Shown piece by piece: positions 3,206-57,075 of a stretch of DNA of 64,000 nt; positions within the stretch are counted from its first letter, which is position 1; the number at the start of each line of letters is the position of its first letter. A model generated the notes under the pieces. The model was given only the letters and a program-made list of their open reading frames with translations, was not told where the DNA came from and did no database searches. The DNA lies in assembly GCA_046346665.1 (NCBI GenBank), contig JAXMHQ010000001.1:131896-195895 (forward strand), read 5' to 3'. This DNA comes from Verrucomicrobiota bacterium. Lineage in GTDB: Bacteria > Verrucomicrobiota > Verrucomicrobiia > Limisphaerales > JAXMHQ01. Both the position numbers and the translations under genes were made by a program.

Positions 3206-4222
3206 TTGAAGACCTTGATTCTCAAACCGAGTTCGCTCGGGGATGTCATCCAGGCGCTGCCCGTGCTGCGACTGCTCAAACGGCATCAGCCCGGCAACCA
3301 GGTCTATTGGTGGATCGATTCGGAACTGGCCCCGCTCCTGGAAGGCGACCCCGACCTCGCCGGGCTCGTCCTTTTCGAGCGGCGCCGCTGGACGTCCCCC
3401 CGCCGCTGGCCCGAAGTCTGGCGCAGCGTGCGCTGGATGCGGGATCAACACTTCGATCTTGTCCTCGACCTTCAATGCCTCGCCCGCAGCGGCGCGTTTG
3501 CGTGGCTCGCCAACGGCAAACTGCTCGTCGGACTCGACGACGCCCGCGAAGGCGCGCGCGGCTTCTACGACCTGGTCGTCCGGCGCGAATCCCCGCTCAC
3601 CCACGCCGTCGATTGGTACCTCGGCACCCTCCGCGCCCTCGGCATCCCAACCTCCGGCCGCTTCACCTGGCTGCCTGTCCGCGCCGCCGCCGCGGAGGAA
3701 ATTCGCCGGCGCGATGCCCACAACCATCGCTGGATCGTCCTTCAGCCGGGCGCACGCTGGATGAACAAGCGCTGGCCCGTCGAACACTTTTCCGAACTCG
3801 TCCGCCGGCTCGCCCAAAGCCACCCCGGCCATCGCCTGGCCATTCTCGGCGGAAAATCCGACGCGGAACTTGGCGCCGCCATCACCAGCGCCGCCCCGCG
3901 GGCATGCCTCGACCTCACCGGCAAACTGTCCCTGCCGGAAATGATCGAATGGATCCGGCTCGCGCGGCTCATGATCTCCAACGACACCGGCCCCATGCAC
4001 GTCGCCGCCGCCGTCGGCACCCCGCTCGTCGCCTTGTTCGGCCCGACCGAACCCTGCCGTACCGGCCCCTACGGACAGCTCCGCGAGTCCATCCAGGTCG
4101 CACTCCCCTGCGTTCCGTGCATGAAATCCCAGTGCACCTACGTCCGCCCCCTGGAATGCCTGCGCGCCATCACCCCCGAAATGGTCCACGCCCGCGCCGC
4201 CGCCGCGCTCAAGGACAGGTAA
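3206..4222 (+). CDS. glycosyltransferase family 9 (ADP-heptose:LPS heptosyltransferase-like)
   Basis: ILKPSSLGDVIQALPVLRLLK at the N-terminus and ISNDTGPMHVAAAVGTPLVALFGPT near the C-terminus are classic GT9 motifs. Confidence 0.85.
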   Translation: MKTLILKPSSLGDVIQALPVLRLLKRHQPGNQVYWWIDSELAPLLEGDPDLAGLVLFERRRWTSPRRWPEVWRSVRWMRDQHFDLVLDLQCLARSGAFAWLANGKLLVGLDDAREGARGFYDLVVRRESPLTHAVDWYLGTLRALGIPTSGRFTWLPVRAAAAEEIRRRDAHNHRWIVLQPGARWMNKRWPVEHFSELVRRLAQSHPGHRLAILGGKSDAELGAAITSAAPRACLDLTGKLSLPEMIEWIRLARLMISNDTGPMHVAAAVGTPLVALFGPTEPCRTGPYGQLRESIQVALPCVPCMKSQCTYVRPLECLRAITPEMVHARAAAALKDR

Positions 4223-11775: not shown

Positions 11776-11953
11776 GTCGAGGGTCGAAAGCCGAGAGTCG
11801 AGGGCAGGAGCTGGCGGCGGGTCGACGCGATCGTTGGATTCCAGGCGTACTGACAAGAGGGGCCTCCGCGATTTTACAATCGCGGCTACCGGTCAGGGTT
11901 GAGAACCATCCGCCACGTCGGGCCCTCGACTCTGGACCTTCGACTCTCGACTC
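11776..11953. repeat. word-periodic inverted repeat (GTCGAGGG family) with ~115-nt loop
   Basis: Left gtcgagggtcgaaagccgagagtcgagggc. Right gccctcgactctggaccttcgactctcgactc. The loop has an inner hairpin ccgcgatt-ttac-aatcgcgg. Confidence 0.8.
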
Positions 11954-15771: not shown

Positions 15772-15850
15772 GTTAAAAGAGTTGAATGGTTGAATGGTTC
15801 AACCGTCCCGCGCGCCAGCTTTCAACCGTTCAACCGTTTAACAATTCAAC
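15772..15850. repeat. word-periodic hairpin (GTTGAATGGTT / AACCGTTCAAC family), copy upstream of the dUTPase gene
   Basis: gttgaatggttgaatggttcaaccg ... ctttcaaccgttcaaccgtttaacaattcaac. Confidence 0.75.
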
Positions 15851-16291: not shown

Positions 16292-16379
16292 GTTGAATCG
16301 TTGAACTGTTAAACGGTTAAATGGGAATGCCGGCGCCGCTATCCACACTTTTAACGTTTTAACCGTTTAACGATTCAAC
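16292..16379. repeat. word-periodic hairpin (same GTTGAA/GTTAAACGGTT family), copy downstream of the dUTPase gene
   Basis: gttgaatcgttgaactgttaaacggttaaa - 27-nt loop - ttttaacgttttaaccgtttaacgattcaac. Confidence 0.8.
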
Positions 16380-16438: not shown

Positions 16439-16915
16439 ATGAGAACGAGCTGCCGATTCGCGATGGCCGTGCACGTGCTGGCCGTCCTGGCCTACAAGGA
16501 CGGCGACCGGGTGACCTCGGCGCTGCTCGCCTCGAGCGTCAATACGAACCCGGTGATCATCCGGCGGCTCCTGCTGGACCTGAAGAAGGCGCGGCTCGTG
16601 GAGACCGGCAAAGGCGCGGGGTCGGGATCGCGCCTGAGCCGTTCCGCCGCCCGGATCAACCTGGCCCAGGTCTACCGCGCCGTGGAAGGATCGGAATCGT
16701 TCCGCAGCCCCGCCCGAAAACCCAGCGCCGCCTGCCCCGTCGGCCAGTGCATTCGCAACAGCCTCAACGCCGTGTTCGCCTCCGCCCAGCGCGCCCTGGA
16801 ACTGGACCTCGAACGCACAACCCTGGCGGACATCGCCCGGGCCGCGGAGGAATGCGCCTGCAAGGGCGTCGAGGGTCGACGGTCGAGGGGCGGGCGCCGG
16901 GCGAATGCGGAATAG
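16439..16915 (+). CDS. Rrf2 (BadM/IscR-like) family transcriptional regulator
   Basis: FAMAVHVLAVLAY.....TSALLASSVNTNPVIIRRLLLDLKKARLVE winged-helix N-terminus typical of Rrf2. The last ~16 codons run into a repeat arm. Confidence 0.85.
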   Translation: MRTSCRFAMAVHVLAVLAYKDGDRVTSALLASSVNTNPVIIRRLLLDLKKARLVETGKGAGSGSRLSRSAARINLAQVYRAVEGSESFRSPARKPSAACPVGQCIRNSLNAVFASAQRALELDLERTTLADIARAAEECACKGVEGRRSRGGRRANAE

Positions 16916-17033
16916 CCGGGGCACACCAGACCTTCTCACAGTTTGAACGCCGCCCGGGCGCAGGTGGTCGAACATCCCGACTACACGGCGCACGGACAGG
17001 CGGCCCTCGACACTCGACGATCGACTCTCGACG
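16868..17033. repeat. word-periodic inverted repeat (GTCGAGGG family) with ~110-nt loop; left arm overlaps the Rrf2 gene 3' end
   Basis: Left gtcgagggtcgacggtcgagggg. Right gccctcgacactcgacgatcgactctcgacg. Confidence 0.8.
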
Positions 17034-18068: not shown

Positions 18069-18080
18069 CGATATCGAGCG

Positions 18081-18170
18081 GTTAAATGGTTAAAAGGGTT
18101 GAATGGTTGAATGGTTGATTCGCGCGAGCGGGTCGACCATTCAACTTTTTTAACCGTTCAACCATTCAAC
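18081..18170. repeat. word-periodic hairpin (GTTGAATGGTT family) after the sigma-factor stop
   Basis: gttaaatggttaaaagggttgaatggttgaatggttga ... gaccattcaacttttttaaccgttcaaccattcaac. Confidence 0.8.
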
Positions 18171-23237: not shown

Positions 23238-23335
23238 TTGGATTAATGGATTAATGGATTGATGGATTACTGGATAAAGCGCGATCGCCGCGTGGAGCCA
23301 AAAATCCAATCATCCATTTATCCAATAATCCAGCA
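23238..23335. repeat. word-periodic hairpin (GGATTAATGGATT family) after the RND pump stop
   Basis: ttggattaatggattaatggattgatggattactggataaa - loop - aaaatccaatcatccatttatccaataatccagca. Confidence 0.8.
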
Positions 23336-31407: not shown

Positions 31408-31475
31408 TGGGGTGTTGGAGTAATGGAGTATTGGATTACCGGGACCCATCACTCCACCACTCCACCACCCCATTC
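31408..31475. repeat. word-periodic hairpin (GGAGTAATGGAGT / ACTCCACCACTCC family) after the Gfo/Idh/MocA stop
   Basis: tggggtgttggagtaatggagtattggattacc ... ccatcactccaccactccaccaccccattcc (imperfect). Confidence 0.65.
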
Positions 31476-33925: not shown

Positions 33926-34016
33926 CGCAGGTAGGGACGCCGCGCTGCGGCGTCCGCGGTCGGCGCAGCGCGCCGACCCTACCTTTTGCGGCTACGACAT
34001 TTCTTGAGCCGCTCTA
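33926..34016 (+). repeat. 91-bp structured repeat, copy 1 (100% identical to 55537..55627)
   Basis: cgcaggtagggacgccgcgctgcggcgtccgcggtcggcgcagcgcgccgaccctaccttttgcggctacgacatttcttgagccgctcta, compared base by base with the second copy. Confidence 0.95.
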
Positions 34017-36095: not shown

Positions 36096-36285
36096 CCGTC
36101 TCTATGCAGTCGGTTTTCCTGGGGATAAACGCAGAGGCGCGGAGGGCGCAGAGATTCGCAGAGAACTGGCGGCTTTTTCGGGGTCACCGATTGGTGAGCG
36201 ATTTGCCTGACCCATTTCTCTGCGGTCCTCCGCGTCCTCTGCGTCTCTGCGTGAGTTTGAGTTTTTTTGAATTGCATAGAGACGG
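36096..36285. repeat. nested inverted repeats: outer 15-bp pair plus inner word-periodic arms (CGCAGAGG family)
   Basis: Outer ccgtctctatgcagt / attgcatagagacgg. Inner acgcagaggcgcggagggcgcagagattcgcagagaa / ttctctgcggtcctccgcgtcctctgcgtctctgcgt. A T-run (gagttttttt) follows the right inner arm on the plus strand. Confidence 0.8.
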
Positions 36286-46726: not shown

Positions 46727-46802
46727 GGATTAATGGATGAATGGATTCCTGGATTCAGGATGCCCAATCCAACAATCCAATTATCCAGCGATCCAACAAT
46801 CC
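46727..46802. repeat. word-periodic hairpin (GGATTAATGGATT family) in the ccoI-glgC divergent gap
   Basis: ggattaatggatgaatggattcctggattcag ... caatccaacaatccaattatccagcgatccaacaatcc. Confidence 0.75.
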
Positions 46803-46898
46803 GCTTCTTCCCTTTCCCCGCTTGCCCGTTTTGCGGAGGGAGCGTATAAGTTTGGCGTAGCGAGTGCGGTCAACCCAGAAGAGAGATTCATCAATACT

Positions 46899-48206
46899 AT
46901 GTCACAGACAGGGCGGCAGACCATCAACACGAGCAACGTGCTTTCGGTGATCATGGGCGGCGGACAGGGCACGCGGCTGTTCCCGCTCACCAAGGAGCGG
47001 TCCAAGCCCGCGGTGCCGCTGGCGGGCAAATACCGGCTGGTCGACATCCCGATTTCCAACTGCATCAATTCCGGCCTGCGCCGCATCTACCTGCTCACCC
47101 AGTTCAATTCCGCCTCGCTGCACCGCCACATTTCCCAGTCGTACAAGTTCGATCATTTCACCGGCGGTTTCGTGGAGATCCTGGCGGCGGAGCAGACGAT
47201 GACGGACAATTCCTGGTACCAGGGCACGGCCGACGCGGTGCGGAAAAACCTGATTCATTTTCTGAACCACGATTTCGATTACCTGCTGATCCTGAGCGGC
47301 GACCAATTGTATCACATGGATTTCCGGCGGATTATCGCGCAGCACCAGGAGACGGGGGCGGACATCACCGTGGCGACCATCCCCGTGTCGCGGCGCGAAT
47401 CGGAATCGCTGGGCATCATGCAAATCGATGCCGAACGGCGGATCACGCGGTTTGTGGAGAAGCCGAAGGACCCGGCGGTGCAGGATTCCCTTCGGCTGAC
47501 GCCGGACTGGCTGGAGCGGCTGGGGATTGAGGCGGGCAAGGAGTGTTTCCTGGCGTCGATGGGCATCTACGTGTTCAACCGGGATGTTGTCCGCAAGCTC
47601 CTGGACAACAACCTGACGGATTTCGGCAAGCACATCATCCCGGGCGCGATCGGGACGCAGCGCGTGTTCTCGTTTGTGTTCCAGGGTTACTGGGAGGATA
47701 TCGGGACGATCCGGTCGTTTTTCGAAGCCAACCTCGACGTCACGTCGGAGCTGCCGCGGTTTAATTTCTTCGACATGGGCGCGCCGATCTTCAGCCGGCC
47801 GCGGTTCCTGCCGGGCTCAAAAATCAACAGCGCGCAGGTGGACCACGCGGTGATTTCCGACGGCTGCATCATCAATCATTCGCGCATTTCGCACAGCATC
47901 GTGGGCGTGCGCAGCATCGTGGGCGCCGGGACCGAACTGAACCGCGTCATCCTGCTGGGCTGCGATTATTATGAATCGGCCGAGTCGATCGCCGCCAATG
48001 AACAGGCGGGCCGGCCGCGGATCGGGGTGGGGATGAACACGCGCATTGAAAACGCGATCATCGACAAAAATGCGCGCATCGGGGACAACGTGACCATTTC
48101 GCCCGCCGGCAAGCCCGAACAGGTGGATCACCCGCTGTATTACATCCGCGACGGCATTGTAATCATCCCCAAGAGCGGCGTCGTCCCGCACGGCACGGTC
48201 ATTTGA
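46899..48206 (+). CDS. glgC: glucose-1-phosphate adenylyltransferase
   Basis: VIMGGGQGTRLFPLTKERSKPAVPLAGKYRLVDIPISNCINSG, WYQGTADAV, and the left-handed beta-helix C-terminus. ATG 46899; upstream ORF-track residues are encoded by a repeat. Confidence 0.95.
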   Translation: MSQTGRQTINTSNVLSVIMGGGQGTRLFPLTKERSKPAVPLAGKYRLVDIPISNCINSGLRRIYLLTQFNSASLHRHISQSYKFDHFTGGFVEILAAEQTMTDNSWYQGTADAVRKNLIHFLNHDFDYLLILSGDQLYHMDFRRIIAQHQETGADITVATIPVSRRESESLGIMQIDAERRITRFVEKPKDPAVQDSLRLTPDWLERLGIEAGKECFLASMGIYVFNRDVVRKLLDNNLTDFGKHIIPGAIGTQRVFSFVFQGYWEDIGTIRSFFEANLDVTSELPRFNFFDMGAPIFSRPRFLPGSKINSAQVDHAVISDGCIINHSRISHSIVGVRSIVGAGTELNRVILLGCDYYESAESIAANEQAGRPRIGVGMNTRIENAIIDKNARIGDNVTISPAGKPEQVDHPLYYIRDGIVIIPKSGVVPHGTVI

Positions 48207-48216
48207 CCGCGAAGTT

Positions 48217-48247
48217 CTTTTCACCACGAAGGCGCGAAGCGCACGAA
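48217..48247 (+). repeat. 31-bp direct repeat, copy 1 (orphan left arm, CACGAAG family) just after the glgC stop
   Basis: ttttcaccacgaaggcgcgaagcgcacgaag is 29/31 identical to 48799..48829. Confidence 0.9.
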
Positions 48248-48255
48248 GTTCAGAA

Positions 48256-48687
48256 TTACATCTGTTCCGGGCGGGCTTCCGGATTTTTCCGCGTGTGCCC
48301 CGTGTCCAGGATCAGGCGGGTGATGCCGTCTTTCAGAAGGCTGACATTGAAATTCAGCAAGAGCCCGACCCGAACATTCGCGAGCTTCATATAGGTTAGC
48401 AACTGGGCTTTGTGAATTGGATCAATGTTTGCGACGGATTTAAGCTCCACGATGATACCTCGATCCACCATCAAATCCAGCCGGTAGCCGCAATCGATGG
48501 CCATCCCCTTGTAGCAAACAGGCAATGGCACTTGCGCCTGAAATGGAATTTTTTGCAAAGCGAGTTCGTGCGCGAGGCAGTGTTCGTAAGCGGATTCCAG
48601 CAAACCCGGCCCGAGGGCGCGATGCACTTCTATGGCGCAGCCGATCAACCGGTTCGAGAGTTCTTCAAACTGAATGGTTCCCTGCAT
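48256..48687 (-). CDS. GxxExxY protein (PDDEXK_3 / PD-(D/E)XK nuclease-like family)
   Basis: IGCAIEVHRALGPGLLESAYEHCLAHEL carries the family-defining G..E..Y motif. D...VELK and QLLTYMK blocks follow. Lower GC than its neighbours. Confidence 0.85.
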   Translation of the reverse strand: MQGTIQFEELSNRLIGCAIEVHRALGPGLLESAYEHCLAHELALQKIPFQAQVPLPVCYKGMAIDCGYRLDLMVDRGIIVELKSVANIDPIHKAQLLTYMKLANVRVGLLLNFNVSLLKDGITRLILDTGHTRKNPEARPEQM

Positions 48688-48798
48688 GCTATTCCCTTTC
48701 CTTTATGAACCACGAGAATTCGAGATTCAACCTTGCATGAGAGAATAAAGCCGCGGGTAGGACAATGGCAGTCCAACCTCACAGAAACAGGGAAGACA

Positions 48799-48911
48799 TT
48801 TTTACCACGCAGGCGCGAAGCGCACGAAGATTTGTTCAGGGATAGCCTAACAAGAAAAACTTCGCGCTCTTCGCGCCTTCGTGGTGAACAAAGTCTTCGC
48901 CCTTCGTGGTC
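48799..48911. repeat. 31-bp direct repeat copy 2 plus its complementary arm (intact CACGAAG-family hairpin abutting the CBM48 gene stop)
   Basis: tttttaccacgcaggcgcgaagcgcacgaag - 30-nt loop - cttcgcgctcttcgcgccttcgtggtgaa, followed by a partial extra word gtcttcgcccttcgtggtc. Confidence 0.85.
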
Positions 48912-48919
48912 AGCGCCGG

Positions 48920-49345
48920 CTACTTGGTCTGCGCGTAGAGCATGAAGACGCGCCCGCCGCGGGCGGTTTGGAGCTGGAACTGTTCCTCCTGCGGCCCGTG
49001 CGGAATCGCCAGCCCGTCCGCATTTTTATCCTGCACCGGTTTGCCATCCACCAGGATCATGTAGTGATGGGTGCGGTTCCCGGGGATGTGGTGAAGCGTG
49101 ACGTGCCAGGCGTCAACTTCGCTGTCGCGTGTGAGCGGCACTTTCTGCCAGTTGTTGAAGGAGCCGACGATCTCGACCGTGGCCGGCGCCTGGGTTTGTC
49201 CGTCGGGCAACCGCCAGCGGAATACCTTGGAATAAGTCGGGCGCCGGTCGGGGGAGTCCTGGTGTTTCAGCGGCGATCCGGCGAAAGGTTCTGGAACCAT
49301 CGGCCCGCCCTTGGAGGATTTCTGACCAAAAAAACTGTTCAGCAT
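48920..49345 (-). CDS. glycogen-binding (CBM48 / AMPK1_CBM-like) domain protein
   Basis: VFRWRLPDG...VEIVGSFNNWQKVPLTRD.....WHVTL.L.PG.H.Y..LVDG is the AMPK beta/CBM48 pattern. Confidence 0.7.
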   Translation of the reverse strand: MLNSFFGQKSSKGGPMVPEPFAGSPLKHQDSPDRRPTYSKVFRWRLPDGQTQAPATVEIVGSFNNWQKVPLTRDSEVDAWHVTLHHIPGNRTHHYMILVDGKPVQDKNADGLAIPHGPQEEQFQLQTARGGRVFMLYAQTK

Positions 49346-49363
49346 ACGACAAAAAACAATTCC

Positions 49364-49458
49364 GGGAGGGACGAGCTACCGCGAGTCCCATTCCAGGCTG
49401 GCGACAAAACCGCTTCTTCTGTGCATTGTGTTGGGGACTCGCATAGCTCGTCCCTCCC
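49364..49458. repeat. long imperfect hairpin (26-nt arms, 43-nt loop), distinct non-periodic repeat type
   Basis: gggagggacgagctaccgcgagtccc ... ggggactcgcatagctcgtccctccc (about 24/26 complementary). Confidence 0.75.
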
Positions 49459-49469
49459 ATATTTACACC

Positions 49470-49509
49470 ATCCGGGAATCCAGTCCAGCGGGAGCTGGAA
49501 TTCCCGGAT
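49470..49509 (-). terminator. hairpin immediately downstream of fba (terminator-like, no U-tract)
   Basis: atccgggaatccag-tccagcgggag-ctggaattcccggat. Confidence 0.45.
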
Positions 49510-49546
49510 AAACGAGGGAGAAATCCGCCGGCGGGGGAGGTTGCGC

Positions 49547-50512
49547 TCAGTCGAAGGCGTGCCCGGCGCAGCACAGGACGTTTCTGACCTTGTGCCGGAC
49601 GAGTTCCTTGACCTTGTTGCGGGCGGGGCCGAGATACTTGCGGGGATCGAATTCCTTGGGATTCTCGAACAGCGCCTTGCGGATGGCGGCCGTCATGGCC
49701 AGGCGCAGGTCGGTGTCGATGTTGACCTTGGTGCAACCGGTGCGGCGCGCGACTTCGATATCCGATTCCGAAACGCCGGCGGTGTCGGTGCCGAGTTTGC
49801 CGCCGTACTTGTTGATTTCCTCCGCGAGATCCTTCGGAACGCTGGAAGCGCCGTGCAGCACGAGCGGGTAATCGCCCAGCCCGGCGTCCATCAGCGCCTT
49901 CTTGATCGCCTTGAGCCGCTCCAGGTCGAGGTGCTGTTCGCCCTTGAATTTATAGGCCCCGTGGGAATTGCCGATGGCGACCGCGAGGGAATCGACGCCG
50001 GATTCGCGCACGAATCGGACGGCTTCCTCGGGGTGGGTGTAATGGCCGGTGGTGGAGTAATTGCCGCCCTCCTCGCCTTCGTCGAACTGCGCGCCGACGA
50101 GGTGGCCGAGTTCGCCTTCCACAACGCAATTGTGCTTGTGGGCGTATTCCACGACGCGCTTGCAGATCTCCACGTTCTTGTCGAACGGCTCGTGGCTCGC
50201 GTCGATCATCACGCTGGTGAACCCCTCATCGATGCAATCCTTGCACAGCTCGAACGAGTCGCCATGGTCCAGGTGGACGGCGATCGGGATGTTCGAGAGG
50301 CTGACGGCGGCTTCGATCAGTTTCTTCAGGTAAACCGGGTTGGCATACTGCCGGGCGCCCTTGGAAATCTGGAGCATGACCGGCGCTTTTTCCTCCTCGC
50401 AGGCCTCAACGATGGCCTGGAGCAGCTCCATGTTGTTGACGTTGAAAGCTCCCAGCGCGTATTTTCCCTTGAGCGCCTTGGCAAACAATTCCCGCGTATG
50501 TGTCAATGGCAT
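49547..50512 (-). CDS. fba: class II fructose-1,6-bisphosphate aldolase
   Basis: YALGAFNVNNMELLQAIVEA, VHLDHG, SVMIDASH, EGELG, AIGNSHG motifs. The start is at internal ATG 50512. Confidence 0.95.
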   Translation of the reverse strand: MPLTHTRELFAKALKGKYALGAFNVNNMELLQAIVEACEEEKAPVMLQISKGARQYANPVYLKKLIEAAVSLSNIPIAVHLDHGDSFELCKDCIDEGFTSVMIDASHEPFDKNVEICKRVVEYAHKHNCVVEGELGHLVGAQFDEGEEGGNYSTTGHYTHPEEAVRFVRESGVDSLAVAIGNSHGAYKFKGEQHLDLERLKAIKKALMDAGLGDYPLVLHGASSVPKDLAEEINKYGGKLGTDTAGVSESDIEVARRTGCTKVNIDTDLRLAMTAAIRKALFENPKEFDPRKYLGPARNKVKELVRHKVRNVLCCAGHAFD

Positions 50513-50626
50513 AAAGTGTCGTTCTGTTTCACGCGCCGCACGGGCGCATATCCGGAACATTTTAGGCGGACCCGGTCAAAAGGAAACAAAAAACACAGGA
50601 CTCACCTCGAAGCAGGGAAGGATTTA

Positions 50627-50881
50627 TCAACCACGAAGACACGAAGAACACGAAGGTTTTGGGGGGGCAGATTGTTTCGATGTTGGGACCGGATGAGGCC
50701 GGCCCTCCAATCGATCCGCTATCGACGATGCAAAGTGAAATGCCTGGAAAAGACCAATCGCGGAAATCAGCCGCAGACTCAGCAAGCGCGCAAAATTCGA
50801 TGTGCACGGAATGAACGAGCAGCCTGGTCCGGCTTTCCCCCGAAAAAGACTTCGCGTTCTCCGCGTCTTCGTGGTGAAAAA
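50627..50881. repeat. word-periodic inverted repeat (CACGAAG family) with ~168-nt lower-GC loop, between the sigma-54 activator gene and fba
   Basis: Left tcaaccacgaagacacgaagaacacgaaggttttggggggg. Right cccccgaaaaagacttcgcgttctccgcgtcttcgtggtgaaaaa. Confidence 0.8.
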
Positions 50882-50894
50882 TTTCCCTCCCCGT

Positions 50895-52364
<1,470 letters not shown>

Positions 52365-52439
52365 CGGCCGACATTAACGGAATTTCTTCCCGGCGGGCAA
52401 GCTTTTCAACCGCGCGACGCAACAACACGAACCGGCTCT

Positions 52440-52466
52440 CACCACGAAGACACGAAGGACGCGAAG
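52440..52466. repeat. orphan left-type arm of the CACGAAG family upstream of the sigma-54 activator gene
   Basis: caccacgaagacacgaaggacgcgaag. No complementary arm lies nearby. It is complementary (~22/27) to the right arm at 50850..50876 on the other side of the gene. Confidence 0.75.
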
Positions 52467-52554
52467 AAATCTCTTTTGAGGGAAGTGCTGCTCCCGATTT
52501 TGCTTTTGCGCGGCTGCCGGATTTCCGACGCCGCGCCCGATCTCGCGAAGGCGG

Positions 52555-52588
52555 CCATTCCGCACTCCGCGTTCCGCATTCCGCATTT
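52555..52588. repeat. orphan right-type arm of the AATGCGG family abutting the pilC stop
   Basis: ccattccgcactccgcgttccgcattccgcattt. About 29/31 identical to the reverse complement of 55418..55450, 2.8 kb away. Confidence 0.8.
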
Positions 52589-53798
52589 AGCGCGCCTGGT
52601 TGATGATGTCCGCCATTTTAAAGATGGGCAGGAACATACAGATCACCATGCCGCCGATGACGATGCCGAGGCCGACGATCAGGATGGGCTCGATCAGCGA
52701 GGTCAGGCCGGACAGGGTGGTTTCGATTTCCTCGTCCAGGAAGTCGGAGATGCGTTCCAGCATGTTGTCGATCTTGCCGGTTTGTTCGCCGGCCGTGATC
52801 ATGCGGATGATCATGCTGGGGAAAATGGGATGCTTGCTGAGCGCGGTGGAAATGCTTTCGCCGCGTTCGATGTCGGCGGAGGCGTCCTTGATGGCCTTCT
52901 CCATCACCACGTTGCCGACAGTCTGGGAAACGATCTGCAGCACTTCGAGGATCGGCACGCCGGAGCGGATCAGCGACGCCAGGGTGCGGGTGAATCGTGC
53001 AAGGCAGATCTTGTGGGCAATCATGCCGAAGATCGGGAGCTTGATGCGGCGCGAATCCCAGAACCAGCGGCCGGGCTTGGTCTTGATGAAGGCGAACCAG
53101 CCGTAAACGATGCCGGCGCCGGCGAGAACAAACAGGAGGATGAAGCGCTTGACGATTTCGCTCAGGTCGATGAGGAACTGGGTCGGACCGGGCAGCTTGG
53201 CGCCGAATCCCTGGTAAATTTCACCGAACACCGGCACGACCTTGATGAGCAGGAACGTGGTGATCAGGATAGCCACGATGGTGACGACCGTGGGATACAT
53301 CATCGCCGATTTGACCTTCTTGCGCAGGCGCGCAGCGTTTTCGAGGTAAATGGCCAGGCGCGCCATGATTTCGGCGAGCAAACCGCCCTTTTCACCGGCG
53401 GACACCATGGAATAATACAGGCGGTCGAAAACCTTCGGATGCTTCTGCAGCGCCTCGGAAAAGCTGTCGCCGGCTTCCACGCGGGCGCAAATGTCGCGAA
53501 TGACATCGCGCATCGCCTTGTTCGTGGTCTGTTCGGCGAGCGCCTGGAGCGACTGAACCATCGCAAGACCGGCGTCGATCATCGTGGCGAGTTGCCGGGT
53601 GAAAATGACCTGGTCGGCAAGGCTGACCCTGCCGCCGCTGGTGCGTCCTTTCTTGCCGACCTTTTCCTGGATGGAAACCACCAGGAGATTGCGGTTGAGC
53701 AGCGCCGTGATGGCCGCCTGCTCGGTGGCCGCTTCGACGGAGCTGCGGATCTCTCGGCCGGAGGCCGTCTCCCGCGCAATATACAAGTATGAAGGCAT
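52587..53798 (-). CDS. pilC: type II secretion system F-family / type IV pilus platform protein (PilC/GspF-like)
   Basis: 403 aa with duplicated T2SSF domains (LATMIDAGL..., LASLIRSGVPI...), a 3-TM layout, and the typical Y.A.....G N-terminus. Confidence 0.9.
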   Translation of the reverse strand: MPSYLYIARETASGREIRSSVEAATEQAAITALLNRNLLVVSIQEKVGKKGRTSGGRVSLADQVIFTRQLATMIDAGLAMVQSLQALAEQTTNKAMRDVIRDICARVEAGDSFSEALQKHPKVFDRLYYSMVSAGEKGGLLAEIMARLAIYLENAARLRKKVKSAMMYPTVVTIVAILITTFLLIKVVPVFGEIYQGFGAKLPGPTQFLIDLSEIVKRFILLFVLAGAGIVYGWFAFIKTKPGRWFWDSRRIKLPIFGMIAHKICLARFTRTLASLIRSGVPILEVLQIVSQTVGNVVMEKAIKDASADIERGESISTALSKHPIFPSMIIRMITAGEQTGKIDNMLERISDFLDEEIETTLSGLTSLIEPILIVGLGIVIGGMVICMFLPIFKMADIINQAR

Positions 53799-54108
53799 AG
53801 CTTATCGAAACGGCCTCCCGCAGGTTCGCAACCTGGTTGTTCAGTTCAGGACGGCTCGTTCGCGGCATGTTGAGCAGGGTTTATTCCACTCATTCACAAA
53901 ACCTCATCCAAGCTCCCGCCACGGCGCGTTTTGCGGTTTTTCAGTGGCGCTCCCGGCTGCTTCTGCCCCAAGCCCGGACAGTTCTGTACCGGTCCGCGGG
54001 AAGAATCTTGTTGTCAAAGCCCCCGGTTTGGCTTTGAATCGGATCCATCAACCGGGGCCGGCCCGCCCGGCGGGTAACTGTTCAGGAACCGGGACGGATC
54101 CAGCCCCT

Positions 54109-54124
54109 TGGCGCAGAAGATGCC
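54109..54124 (+). promoter_or_regulatory. candidate sigma-54 (-24/-12) promoter for porin paralog 1
   Basis: TGGCGCagaagATGCC. The GG and GC dinucleotides sit at the consensus spacing of TGGCAC-N5-TTGCW, 16-31 nt upstream of the possible starts. Confidence 0.35.
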
Positions 54125-54139
54125 CATTATAAGTTTATT

Positions 54140-55417
54140 ATGTCGGAGGAACGCATGAGAGTGAACAAATGGACGCTGGGCCTCGCCGCCGCGGGCGTCG
54201 TCAGCCTGGGATCCGCGGTCCAGGCCGAGGAAACTTCAAACACCGTCCTCACCGGCCTGTCCTCAACCACCTTGAGCGGCTACGTCGATACGTCCGCCAT
54301 GTGGAACTTCGGCACCGGCAACGCCAACCCCGTCCCGGTCCGGTTCAACCAGGGCAAACAGGACGGATTCAACCTCAACGTCGTCCAGCTCTCCCTCGCC
54401 CGGCCCCTGTCCGAAAATAACTGGGCCGCCGGATACCGCGTCGACCTCTGGATGGGACCCGACGCCGCCCAGCTCGACACTGCCAGTCTCCAGTCCGGTT
54501 TCACCCAGGGCGATTTAGCCATCCGCCAGGCCTACGTCGCCCTCCGCACCCCCCTCGGCAACGACATCGAATGGAAGATCGGCGTTTTTGACAGCATCAT
54601 CGGCTACGAATCCGTCGCCTCCCCGAGCGATCCCAATTACACCCGCTCCTACGGCAACACCCTCGAACCCACCTCGAACACGGGCCTGCTGGCGTCCTAC
54701 CGCTTCTGCGAGGAATTCAACATCTCCGCCGGCATCGCCAATACCGTCGGACCTAACATCAACCAGCGCGCATTCAACACCCCCGGCGTCCCGCCGCTCA
54801 CCAATCCCCAGGCCGAGTCCTTCAAGACTTACATGGGATCGTTCACGGTGGTCGCCCCCGACAGCCTCGGATTCCTGGCGGGATCCAGCCTCTACGGCGG
54901 CATCGTGAATGGATTCAATGACGCGGTGAACGAAACCGCGTATCAGAACAACAGCACCAGCTATTACCTCGGCGCCACCTTCGTCACCCCCGTCAACGGG
55001 CTCCGCTTCGGCACCGCCTTCGACTGGCTCCATATCCATAACTGGTCCGAAGTCCTCGCCTCCGCCCCCGTCCCGCTTTTCGGCGGCGACGGCAATAGCT
55101 GGTCCCTGGGACTCTACGGCTCCCTGCAGGCTACGGAAGCCTTCAGCATCCATCTCCGCGGCGAATACGTGAACGACAACGCCGGATTCTTCTTCGGCCC
55201 CTTCGGCGAAGACCAGACCGGCAACGTCGTGGAACGCGCCCAGGTGTTCGAAGTGACCACCACCGCCCAATACGATCTCTGGAAAAACGTGATCAGCCGC
55301 GCGGAATTCCGCTGGGATCACATCGAACACGGCAACGCCTTCGGCGGCACCATCCCCGGCTCCCCCATCTACGCCAACGCCTACATGCTGGCCGCAAATA
55401 TCATCTACCAGTTCTGA
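54140..55417 (+). CDS. outer-membrane beta-barrel porin (BBP2/OmpL-like), paralog 1
   Basis: Signal peptide ending AVQA, alternating beta-strand pattern, C-terminal aromatic (IIYQF). About 45% identical by eye to 55804..57075. Alternative start at ATG 54155. Confidence 0.75.
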   Translation: MSEERMRVNKWTLGLAAAGVVSLGSAVQAEETSNTVLTGLSSTTLSGYVDTSAMWNFGTGNANPVPVRFNQGKQDGFNLNVVQLSLARPLSENNWAAGYRVDLWMGPDAAQLDTASLQSGFTQGDLAIRQAYVALRTPLGNDIEWKIGVFDSIIGYESVASPSDPNYTRSYGNTLEPTSNTGLLASYRFCEEFNISAGIANTVGPNINQRAFNTPGVPPLTNPQAESFKTYMGSFTVVAPDSLGFLAGSSLYGGIVNGFNDAVNETAYQNNSTSYYLGATFVTPVNGLRFGTAFDWLHIHNWSEVLASAPVPLFGGDGNSWSLGLYGSLQATEAFSIHLRGEYVNDNAGFFFGPFGEDQTGNVVERAQVFEVTTTAQYDLWKNVISRAEFRWDHIEHGNAFGGTIPGSPIYANAYMLAANIIYQF

Positions 55418-55698
55418 GGAATGCGGAATGCGGAGTGCGGAGTGCGGAATCCTGGCGGAATGCGGGGTTCACGGATATAACCATCCTTTGATCCATTGAT
55501 GCCGCTCCATTATAGCGGTTTAACATAAACCGTAGCCGCAGGTAGGGACGCCGCGCTGCGGCGTCCGCGGTCGGCGCAGCGCGCCGACCCTACCTTTTGC
55601 GGCTACGACATTTCTTGAGCCGCTCTAAGGACAAGAACGAGCAGGGCTCCCCTGTTGCGCCGCCAGGATTCCGCACTCCGCACTCCGCACTCCGCGTT
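55418..55698. repeat. word-periodic inverted repeat (GAATGCGG/GAGTGCGG family) abutting the porin-1 stop, with a ~200-nt loop carrying the 91-bp repeat
   Basis: Left ggaatgcggaatgcggagtgcggagtgcggaatcctggcg. Right cgccaggattccgcactccgcactccgcactccgcgtt. Confidence 0.85.
55537..55627 (+). repeat. 91-bp structured repeat, copy 2 (fuller copy; outer stem extends to 55531..55600)
   Basis: Identical to 33926..34016. Here cgtagccgca (55531-55540) additionally pairs with tgcggctacg downstream of the ggtaggg...ccctacc stem. Confidence 0.95.
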
Positions 55699-55803
55699 TA
55701 AAATGGCGGGGCGGGCGGCGTCTGAATGGACAAACAGACGCGCCCGCCCGCGGGATCACCGGAGATACTGGCGATCAAATTCGATCGCCAGCTCCCGGGT
55801 GGT

Positions 55804-57075
55804 TTAGAACATGTAGATGATGTTCAGAGTCAGAGTTTCGGCGTTGGCCTTGCTCGGATTGCCAGGGGTCGCCGGAGTCGTGCTGAAATCGGCGGCCACC
55901 GTGCCACCGAAGGGCTTGTCATCCGTCAAGCAATGATCCCAGCGGAATTCCACGCGGCTGATCACGTTCTTCCACAGGGAATAATCCAGCGTTTCGGTGA
56001 GCGACATGAGCTGGTTGCAGCTCCCCTGCGAGACGTAGCCGAACGAGCCGTTCTCGCCGTTGGCATAGGAGCCGTTGCTGCCCCAACCGAAGTCGAGGCG
56101 GCTGCCGCTCTTCAGTTTCTCGGTGATCTGCCACATCAAGTAGGTGCCCAGGGCATTCGCGTAGGAGTTCTGGAACACGCTGCTGGTGGTCAGGTCGTAG
56201 GCCACACCCAGGCTCAGGCCCGTGATCGGCAACGGCGTCGTGCCGCCGATATACAGGTTGCGCTGGTTGTAATCCGTGCCGCCGCTCGAAGCGCCGCCGC
56301 CCGACACGTTCGGAATCACGGCCGGGAAATGACCGCCGTCCGTCCAGCCGGCCGAGAGCGTCGCGCCCTTCATGAACCCGAAACTCTCGGGAGCCGTGAA
56401 CGAAGCCATCACCAGGTAGGCCTTCTTGGATTCGACACCGTTCTTCACGTCGACCTGGTTGTTGTAACCGGCCTGGTTGCCGATGCCCGCCTGCAGGGCG
56501 AAGCAGTCAGTCACCTTGTAGGTGCCCGCAATGCCCGTGTGCGCGGAGGATTCAATGTAGAACCCGTAGGAACGGCTGAAATTCGGATCCTTGTAGGTGT
56601 CGTAGGATTCGTAGCCGTTGAACGTTCCGAATTGGCCCATGTGCAGCTCCAGGCCGTTGCCAATCGGGACGCGCAGGTTCACATACGCCTCGTTAAAGGC
56701 GAAATCCGTCGTGCCGGACGAGGCAAAAATCCCCGTGCCGCGCTGCGCAGCGCCGGGCCCCATCAGCATCTGGAAATGATAACCCGAGGCCCACTGGGAA
56801 TCGTCCAGCGGCTTGTCCAGCGTCAGGCTCACCACGTCAAGGTTGAAGCCGTCCATCATGGTCGGACCATCATACACGCGGCCCGGCATGTTCGCGTTGC
56901 CGGTTCCCATGTTCCAGATCGCGGAGGTATCCACATAACCGCTCAGCGTCGTGGCGGAAAGGGATGTCAGCACGGAATTCGGTTTCGCAGCCGGAGCCTC
57001 ATCAGCCTGTGCCAAAGCAGGCGCACTGATCAGGCCGGCGCTCAACAGGACTTGTGTCCATTTACTCATGTTCAT
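55804..57075 (-). CDS. outer-membrane beta-barrel porin (BBP2/OmpL-like), paralog 2
   Basis: Signal peptide ending ALAQA. Shared blocks with paralog 1 (TTLSGYVDTSA.WN.GTGNAN, DGFNL.VV.L.L..PL, LWKNVISR.EFRWDH). C-terminal IIYMF. Confidence 0.75.
   Translation of the reverse strand: MNMSKWTQVLLSAGLISAPALAQADEAPAAKPNSVLTSLSATTLSGYVDTSAIWNMGTGNANMPGRVYDGPTMMDGFNLDVVSLTLDKPLDDSQWASGYHFQMLMGPGAAQRGTGIFASSGTTDFAFNEAYVNLRVPIGNGLELHMGQFGTFNGYESYDTYKDPNFSRSYGFYIESSAHTGIAGTYKVTDCFALQAGIGNQAGYNNQVDVKNGVESKKAYLVMASFTAPESFGFMKGATLSAGWTDGGHFPAVIPNVSGGGASSGGTDYNQRNLYIGGTTPLPITGLSLGVAYDLTTSSVFQNSYANALGTYLMWQITEKLKSGSRLDFGWGSNGSYANGENGSFGYVSQGSCNQLMSLTETLDYSLWKNVISRVEFRWDHCLTDDKPFGGTVAADFSTTPATPGNPSKANAETLTLNIIYMF

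Follow-up and report, generated by a model that had tools for sequence, protein, structure and literature searches.

Introduction

Several described systems combine genes with short inverted or tandem repeats, among them foldback transposons and miniature inverted-repeat transposable elements (MITEs), repetitive extragenic palindromic (REP) sequences and their REPIN doublets, heptanucleotide repeats, Rho-independent terminators, integron cassettes and invertible switches. Here we compare with these systems a set of intergenic hairpins from a 64 kb window (the whole stretch of DNA analysed) of a 63% G+C genome of the Verrucomicrobiota (Limisphaerales-like), which belongs to a metagenome-assembled genome (MAG) at NCBI (protein MFO1475184.1). 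In this window, a gene for a sigma-54-dependent response regulator (the activator) and a divergent pair encoding PilC and a porin are each bracketed by complementary arms made of tandem 7–9 nt units. On balance, we favour the view that these arms are the ends of small foldback/REP-like elements which occupy consecutive spacers of an old, intact gene block, and that the genes themselves did not move.

The arms fall into two families, A and B (L and R denote left and right arms). The genes and elements of the locus are as follows, with the strand given where one applies.

46737–48206, plus strand: glgC (gene map)
48218–48250, plus strand: A0L, a family-A left arm without a partner, 12 nt past the stop of glgC, loop side toward the GxxExxY gene
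48256–48687, minus strand: GxxExxY / PD-(D/E)XK_3 gene (PF13366, E = 2e-43; TIGR04256, E = 6e-44), between A0L and the A1 hairpin
48801–48888: A1, a complete family-A hairpin (arms 48801–48833 and 48856–48888, 22 nt loop)
48920–49345, minus strand: CBM48-like gene (gene map)
49547–50560, minus strand: class II aldolase (gene map)
50614–50888: A2, a complete family-A element (arms 50628–50667 and 50838–50877, 170 nt interior)
50895–52364, minus strand: activator (Pfam Response_reg, Sigma54_activat and HTH_8), between A2 and A3
52439–52484, plus strand: A3L, a family-A left arm with its loop-side flank, outer TCACC toward the activator, no right arm
52485–52555: 71 nt interior of a hybrid element, with a local G+C hairpin (52508–52536) and a CGCGAAG unit (52543–52549)
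52556–52589, plus strand: B0R, a family-B right arm of about 4.6 heptamer units (Tandem Repeats Finder), no left arm
52587–53798, minus strand: pilC/GspF-type platform protein (Pfam T2SSF)
54140–55417, plus strand: BBP2 porin-1 (Pfam), divergent from pilC
55415–55700: B1, a complete family-B hairpin (arms 55415–55458 and 55660–55700) between the convergent porins, −85 kcal/mol
55537–55627: REPIN-like doublet of 91 nt inserted in the B1 loop, 100% identical to 33926–34016
55804–57075, minus strand: BBP2 porin-2, convergent with porin-1 and 44% identical to it in amino acids
from 57448: urea-type ABC transporter (gene map)

Comparison with described repeat systems

Foldback transposons and MITEs, such as the FB elements of Drosophila and the Correia elements of Neisseria, have terminal inverted repeats of short tandem subrepeats around a variable middle that sometimes contains an open reading frame (ORF), and they give rise to halves and hybrids via deletion or recombination. 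The present elements are alike in all these respects, with arms of 38 nt in A2 (extending to 55 nt) and 39 nt in B1 and with units of 7–9 nt. They differ in that they are bacterial, only 90–290 nt long and without a known transposase, that no target duplication is found at the ends of A2 or B1, and that the interiors of the copies are unrelated.

REP/REPIN sequences and their RAYT gene (REP-associated tyrosine transposase), reportedly described by Nunvar in 2010 and by Bertels and Rainey in 2011, are similar in being short intergenic palindromes near gene ends, with dispersed solo copies and an enzyme gene flanked by inverted copies. However, the GTAG-headed palindrome typical of them is absent from the A and B arms and occurs only in the separate 91 nt element, the arms are tandem arrays of 7–9 nt units, and the families are local and few. 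RAYT, moreover, is a Y1 transposase, whereas the gene associated here encodes a PD-(D/E)XK (GxxExxY) protein.

Intergenic arrays of 7 nt units near gene ends are also represented by the STRR (short tandemly repeated repetitive) sequences of cyanobacteria, which are heptanucleotide tandem repeats. The TAACTGA repeats of Beggiatoaceae provide a further example (PMC4679880). Those arrays are mostly direct, whereas here every array comes with an inverted partner, and the two form a long stem. Rho-independent terminators share with our hairpins the stable stem directly after a stop codon, but the stems here measure 30–45 bp, and 4 of the window's 15 complete hairpins occupy promoter spacers between divergent genes (5'-5'). 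No U tract follows the arms, and no arm was called as a terminator, the only such calls lying inside loops; the hairpins are not classical terminators.

The gene-sized units of integrons are likewise parted by imperfect hairpin sites (attC), with hybrid sites at the joints. Among the called genes between 37.2 and 63.4 kb, a Pfam scan detected no integrase, and there is no attI. The GTTRRRY core of attC is not present in the arms, which consist of tandem CRCRRAG or GCGGART units with TCACC or TAAAYGC ends. Unlike integron cassettes, which are co-oriented and promoterless, the genes here are core ancestral genes with their own upstream regions, some of them divergent: pilC and porin-1 are transcribed away from each other across a 340 nt spacer, and the activator has a conserved upstream box.

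Invertible switches (Hin/Gin, Fim, shufflons) come to mind as inverted repeats bracket the 2.8 kb pilC/porin-1 segment and agree at 29/31 positions, as the repeats of a site-specific invertible segment would. Yet the same Pfam scan revealed no recombinase, whether of the serine invertase or the tyrosine type, exact inverted identity extends over no more than 15 nt, and every relative examined has the genes in this orientation. For RecA to recombine DNA efficiently in E. coli, roughly 23–27 bp are reportedly required, a figure attributed to Shen and Huang in 1986, and 15 nt falls below this. For the flip-flop inversion of the pilC-porin unit that was suggested by an earlier, sequence-only reading of this DNA, there is thus no positive evidence. 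A tempting interpretation of the pilus, porin and regulator genes at this locus, as mobile cassettes or a phase-variable switch, is thereby removed as not supported.

Two families of arms

The inverted repeats described in the sequence-only reading are real. Positions 52557–52587 match the reverse complement of 55420–55450 at 29/31 (93.5%), and the arms around the activator (50850–50877 and 52439–52466) are complementary at 25/28 positions (89%), above the 22/27 reported earlier; if gaps are allowed, the A2R/A3L match reaches 46 nt at 80%. All coordinates and gene calls of that reading check out. As a null for arm similarity we used the arms of the other tandem-unit hairpins in the window, scored over 24 positions. 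Unrelated arms are mostly alike at 9–14 of these, as opposed to 23/24 for B0R/B1L, 22/24 for A2L/A3L and 21/24 for A2R/A3L, values that equal or exceed the similarity between the two arms of one hairpin. This is far outside the distribution of unrelated arms, and the arms are true same-family copies.

Arms of family A share an architecture that was evident from an alignment with the arms of seven other GxxExxY contexts: a T-rich stretch, (T)CACC, and then three CRCRRAG units 8–9 nt apart. A0L, A1L/R, A2L/R and A3L all fit this pattern, as does hairpin H10 (36129–36252) of the CGCAGAG type. A0L and A1, which flank the GxxExxY gene, are additional family-A copies that had been overlooked; A0L is 94% complementary to 48858–48888 and forms a 43 nt direct repeat (84%) with 48787–48829. 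More CACGAAG-like units are found outside A1 on both sides (48889–48913 and 48787–48800), so the A arrays are longer and more composite than the core arms.

Family B consists of GCGGART heptamers of period 7 with TAAAYGC ends and no TCACC end. Its (Y)GCGGAR units match the family-A core at 6/7 positions, and B1R begins TAAACGCGGAG, like H10 (TAAACGCAGAG). Family B is lineage-specific and, judging from these short matches, possibly a derivative of the family-A type.

Two features in the vicinity of the repeats were considered and not attributed to them. The inverted match around pilC and porin-1 extends into the coding ends (ATCATCNACCAG), and we read this as coincidence because the extension falls on C-terminal residues (...IINQ of pilC, ...IIYQ of porin-1). 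The NII part of the porin C-terminus is common to both porins, and some relatives retain pilC's ATCATCAA. Gene conversion between the inverted porin genes, considered for a 44 nt patch of 93% identity, was rejected, as high-identity patches in these 44%-identical paralogues coincide with conserved protein motifs.

The genes lie between elements

According to the sequence-only reading, the activator and the pilC-porin pair each sit in the loop of a hairpin whose arms were split apart. This is contradicted by two observations. Firstly, both distal arms own a local partner that had been overlooked. A2R pairs within A2 (50630–50667 with 50838–50875, 38 nt, 79%, 170 nt apart), where the inverted match extends to 55 nt at 80%, and B1L pairs within B1 (55420–55458 with 55660–55698, 39 nt, 95% complementary, 201 nt apart). 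On the plus strand, the layout is A2 (left arm, 170 nt, right arm), activator, A3 (left arm only), 71 nt, B0 (right arm only), pilC, porin-1, B1 (left arm, 201 nt, right arm) and porin-2. Secondly, the arms have a polarity. The TCACC ends of A2R and A3L point toward the activator and the TTTA ends of B0R and B1L toward pilC and porin-1, with the outer end of B0R (…CATTTA) overlapping the stop codon of pilC and B1L abutting that of porin-1. The loop-side ends of all four arms point away from the genes, and the loop-side flank of A3L is shared with A2 (46 nt, 80%). As it is the outer arm ends that face the genes, these lie between elements and not within a split loop. The opposite, in-loop polarity is seen at the GxxExxY gene, which is faced by the loop sides of A0L and A1R.

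The 91 nt element in the B1 loop consists of two inverted GTAG-headed G+C palindromes within an outer stem. Motifs of 30–45 nt related to it are present in five loci of the comparison set (L083, L096, L113, L131, L152). The minus-strand porin-2, also overlooked earlier, is convergent with porin-1, not co-oriented. In relatives with two porins these are in tandem, unlike the convergent pair here; an inversion of porin-2 cannot be claimed, because the second porin of the relatives is no closer to porin-2.

Gene order in relatives

For comparison we used 160 related pilC loci (L001–L160, 1.79 Mb in all) from genome and metagenome scans, to which the pilC product is 76–88% identical and to none more than 88%. 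Exact-protein look-ups of pilC, the activator, porin-1 and porin-2 returned no other contig. The only other assembly of the organism that was found, Logan contig L161 (SRR14234082), is 100% identical over 48027–49721, including the A0L/A1 arrangement, and ends before the activator-pilC-porin region.

The order porin(−)-pilC(+)-activator(+)-aldolase(+), in locus orientation, recurs in L007, L022, L028, L032 and L056 among others, and part of it in many more. Of the 160 loci, 126 are informative on the porin, which in 88 of them lies upstream of pilC and is transcribed divergently, and wherever these genes adjoin pilC in a related locus, their relative orientation is the same. Comparison was confined to porin, pilC, activator and aldolase, because no relative matched for the synteny of glgC, CBM48 or the urea-type ABC transporter. 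The relatives do not share the arms: none are common to both activator-flanking spacers in the 10 loci where both could be compared, and orthologous pilC-activator spacers carry unrelated hairpins, some of them of tandem units (L007, L034). The genes predate the arms, as their order recurs in distant relatives whose spacers hold unrelated hairpins. The window keeps an ancestral gene order and orientation, and the gene-sized shuffling proposed in the sequence-only reading finds no support, since order and orientation are common to distant Limisphaerales relatives without these arms. In L034, the pilC-regulator spacer (3811–4105) contains a very large tandem-unit hairpin (minimum free energy −123 kcal/mol) with units unrelated to A or B.

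A2, placed between the activator stop and a promoter-like box of the aldolase, represents about 250 nt of extra DNA, the corresponding distance in L002 and L007 being 25–50 nt; it is absent from the activator-aldolase spacers of the relatives, distant as these are (pilC at most 88%). The aldolase box (TTTTGTTTCCTTT…TAnnAT, in 50561–50627) is conserved and lies just outside A2L in the window, and a second conserved box (GGTTCC..GCTTGC, in 52365–52438) lies upstream of the regulator, outside the repeat arms. Both boxes are likely promoters.

Synteny often breaks in the spacer after pilC. Among 133 informative loci, the next gene is the activator in 32, the aldolase directly in 23 and another gene in 78. 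Genes found after pilC in L001–L160 include the sigma-54 regulator, the aldolase, a NadB-like gene, a GAPDH gene, a Xer-type recombinase and others.

A mixed junction between activator and pilC

A further feature, already recognised in the sequence-only reading, is the chimeric junction at 52439–52589, where a family-A left arm is joined to a right arm of a different family, B. As stated there, the two arms cannot pair: their duplex energies (−22.8 kcal/mol sense, −14.3 antisense) compare with −19.7 ± 3.9 kcal/mol for shuffled sequences, 19% of which are as good. The pilC-activator spacer as a whole is not unusually structured (fold z = −0.78). Pairing of the arms in RNA via G-U wobble (ACGCGGAG with CUUCGCGU, by eye) was considered and discarded, the energy being no better than that of shuffles. 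Within the 71 nt interior, the CGCGAAG unit pairs locally with the last two B units, and the local structures have z = −2.6 and z = −1.8.

A3L, interior and B0R are arranged exactly as in a single element, the outer ends pointing outward and the loop sides inward, but the left arm is from A and the right arm from B. Such a hybrid most likely arose by a single loop-to-loop deletion between abutting A and B elements. Alternatively, an older hairpin may have had its arms converted one by one, or arms may have been added around pre-existing DNA. A mixed junction of the same kind occurs on the Gemmatirosa plasmid (L171, 16370–16560), where an orphan right arm of the other type comes after a complete hairpin. 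At two further positions of this plasmid (6470–6680 and 19200–19430), a CACGGAG-type hairpin is nested in a CGCAGAG-type loop.

Clustering of families

The window contains 15 complete hairpins and 3 partnerless arms composed of tandem 7–9 nt units. Copies of the same family occupy consecutive spacers in several cases: H4/H5/H7 (GTTGAAT), H3/H6 (GTCGAGG), A0–A3 and B0/B1. Across the window, adjacent sites are of the same family in 6 of 16 cases, where 1.64 would be expected (P = 0.0026). Arrays of period 7 or 8 number 27 in these 64 kb as opposed to 132 in the 1.79 Mb of the relatives, a density indicative of an expansion in this lineage. The window has a single GxxExxY gene, and none of the four family-A sites is more than 4.2 kb away from it.

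Association with GxxExxY genes

A survey of the PD-(D/E)XK proteins lists the GxxExxY family as being of unknown function and as having undergone multiple horizontal transfers (PMC3424549). We found tandem-unit arms next to the GxxExxY (PF13366) gene in every context that was fetched, clearly so in 8 of 9; the ninth (L141), truncated where the locus ends, has only a degenerate array. In 5 of 9 contexts, the gene is located within the hairpin loop. The contexts span at least three phyla (Verrucomicrobiota, Gemmatimonadota, Bacteroidota) as well as unclassified metagenome contigs such as L163. Contexts other than that of the window are listed here.

L138, 11173–11620: another member of the Limisphaerales, gene exactly in the loop, CACAGAG units
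L162, L163 (2415–2958) and L166: metagenome or MAG, CACGAAG units
Gemmatirosa kalamazoonensis plasmid: CGCAGAG units, gene flanked on either side by a complete hairpin
Bernardetia: arms beside the gene
Bacteroides finegoldii: gene in the loop
L168, 300–963; L169, 463–913; L170, 425–896: positions for the Gemmatimonadota and Bacteroidota contexts among the nine, gene in or beside hairpins with triple CRCRRAG-unit arms

Family A is a hairpin repeat that accompanies GxxExxY genes across phyla. Its arrays are almost absent from the 1.79 Mb of related pilC loci, which hold only two GxxExxY genes. Literature searches found no description of this association, and neither a PDB relative nor a PADLOC family was found for the GxxExxY protein.

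Copies away from the gene also occur. B. finegoldii and Gemmatirosa contain solo copies with mutually unrelated interiors, two nested hairpins and one orphan right arm. The solo copies of B. finegoldii (L172, 5405–5580 and 8749–8890) have arms about 90% identical to those at its GxxExxY gene and unrelated interiors, one of which has a terminator-like hairpin (by eye) between convergent genes. Long loops could have been decayed GxxExxY genes, but this was rejected, as blastx of the interiors of A2, B1, H3 and H6 and of the chimeric spacer returned nothing.

Insertions into loops have thus far been seen for the GxxExxY gene (the 5 of 9 contexts above), for the two nested hairpins of Gemmatirosa and for the 91 nt REPIN-like element in B1. 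To this extent the idea of hairpins as break-and-join points, put forward in the sequence-only reading, is borne out; it does not apply to the activator or to the pilC-porin genes.

Origin of the arms

Based on the observed arm families, local partners, polarity, gene order, family clustering and GxxExxY association, we consider it probable that the spacers of an ancestral gene block have been colonised by elements that consist of two inverted arms, each of 3–5 tandem 7–9 nt units, around a variable interior. The GxxExxY cassette would have been the source of the family-A elements, and these, like those of family B, would have landed in, or been copied into, neighbouring spacers. Once elements of one family are present in both spacers flanking a gene, this gene is bracketed by complementary right and left arms. 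Between pilC and the activator, two elements would have come to abut, and the hybrid would be what remained after a loop-to-loop deletion had taken away A3R and B0L. Copying would probably proceed via a hairpin or cruciform intermediate, possibly processed by the GxxExxY nuclease, and the very stable stems may act as RNA-level barriers at gene ends.

Several points weigh against this interpretation. No target-site duplication was seen at the ends of A2 or B1. The interiors of the copies are unrelated and some have terminator-like hairpins, which is odd for the insertion of a ready-made element and could hint at arms that were added around existing DNA. The distal A2R/A3L pair is as stable as the local A2L/A2R pair (−55/−58 vs −48/−55 kcal/mol). 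The polarity is a strong but not an absolute argument, because the GxxExxY gene of L162 and that of Gemmatirosa lie between outward-facing arms. The activator is missing between pilC and the aldolase in many relatives, so this spacer is evolutionarily unstable. The proposed relation of family B to family A is confined to a 6–7 nt core, and the order of events is inferred, not observed, from relatives of at most 88% pilC identity.

Of the other explanations, the one that fares best dispenses with mobility, and we regard it as unlikely though worth serious thought. Resident hairpins at gene ends, serving as terminators or insulators, would have grown their arms by slippage, and local gene conversion or template switching would have made neighbouring spacers alike; the chimera would be a terminator with arms converted from different neighbours. 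Such a process would agree with the hairpins, some of tandem units, in orthologous spacers of the relatives (L007, L034), with terminator-like hairpins inside long-loop copies and with the local clustering of families. It would also suit the energy of the A2 stem, which is −48.4 kcal/mol but −55.3 kcal/mol on the transcribed strand due to G-U pairs, a weak indication of a role at the RNA level. However, the architecture of family A is conserved across phyla beside GxxExxY genes and therefore did not arise in place. Nor would resident hairpins explain the extra DNA of A2, the four complete hairpins in divergent spacers or the missing U tracts.

It is quite unlikely that the hairpins served as break-and-join sites for the genes themselves, the activator and the pilC-porin unit having been inserted, shuffled or inverted between split arms, with flip-flop via the 31 bp repeats. 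Near-identical inverted arms do bracket both units, such loops do accept the GxxExxY gene, other hairpins and a REPIN-like element, and the spacer after pilC is a frequent breakpoint with the activator in only 32 of 133 relatives. Against this stand the outer rather than loop-side arm ends that face the genes, the local partners of the distal arms, a gene order and orientation that are ancestral while the arms are lineage-specific, the absence of a recombinase in 37.2–63.4 kb, and the exact inverted identity of at most 15 nt.

Similarly doubtful is a design at the RNA level. In this scheme, the mRNAs would carry one of two tails, (RRUGCGG)n for pilC, porin-1 and porin-2 or UCACCACGAAG for glgC, CBM48 and the activator, as tags for a common RNA-binding factor, and in read-through transcripts the A2 stem would face competition from long-range pairing across the activator ORF. 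The arms begin 0–18 nt after stop codons, and the distal A2R/A3L duplex is strong (−58 kcal/mol on the minus strand); the identical sense-strand tails follow from the inverted geometry. But the arrangement is not conserved in the relatives, hairpins of the same class are also found in promoter spacers, A3L is upstream of the promoter-like box of the activator, and no Rfam family matched at the gathering score, with only meaningless hairpin matches below threshold.

It is extremely unlikely that a chance similarity of low-complexity repeats or a MAG assembly artefact is involved, even though the window is from a MAG and the arms are simple tandem repeats, as same-family similarity is far outside the unrelated-arm distribution, the 30–45 nt arms are shorter than the large k-mers commonly used by short-read assemblers, and the A0L/A1 arrangement recurs in the independent contig L161, which is identical to the window.

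The mobile, element-based origin that we favour points to a class of intergenic hairpins with arms of tandem 7–9 nt units that would colonise adjacent spacers, with halves and hybrids as remnants. It is of practical relevance that such repeats create direct and inverted repeats around single genes. The GxxExxY/PD-(D/E)XK_3 family gains a concrete candidate DNA partner, the conserved triple-unit inverted repeat. By analogy with the RAYT-REP pair, GxxExxY proteins might be the PD-(D/E)XK nuclease partner of a widespread class of tandem-unit hairpin repeats and, by cutting hairpins once extruded, drive the local copying of arms, loop insertions and the formation of halves and hybrids; we put this forward as a tentative and rather improbable proposal. 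If the nuclease does act on the hairpins, the two would form a second system of the REP-RAYT type, with an enzyme of unrelated fold. Its breaks could at times delete or rearrange neighbouring host genes, a reading that would agree with activator loss in relatives and with the instability of the spacer after pilC.

Other tandem-unit hairpins

Eleven other tandem-unit hairpins were identified in the window, all of them members of a small number of locally clustered families and four of them in divergent promoter spacers, at the following positions.

307–402
1537–1629
11776–11951
15775–15850
16292–16379
16868–17032
18080–18170
23239–23332
31408–31472
36129–36252
46727–46802

Same-family hairpins bracket ordinary genes in the window as well, namely those for a dUTPase-like protein, an Rrf2 regulator and a sigma factor. 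This is also the case in relatives, for a MacB/FtsX-type permease (L010), for an OmpR-type regulator (L077) and in L034. The density of tandem-unit hairpins in the window is about six times that of the related genomes.

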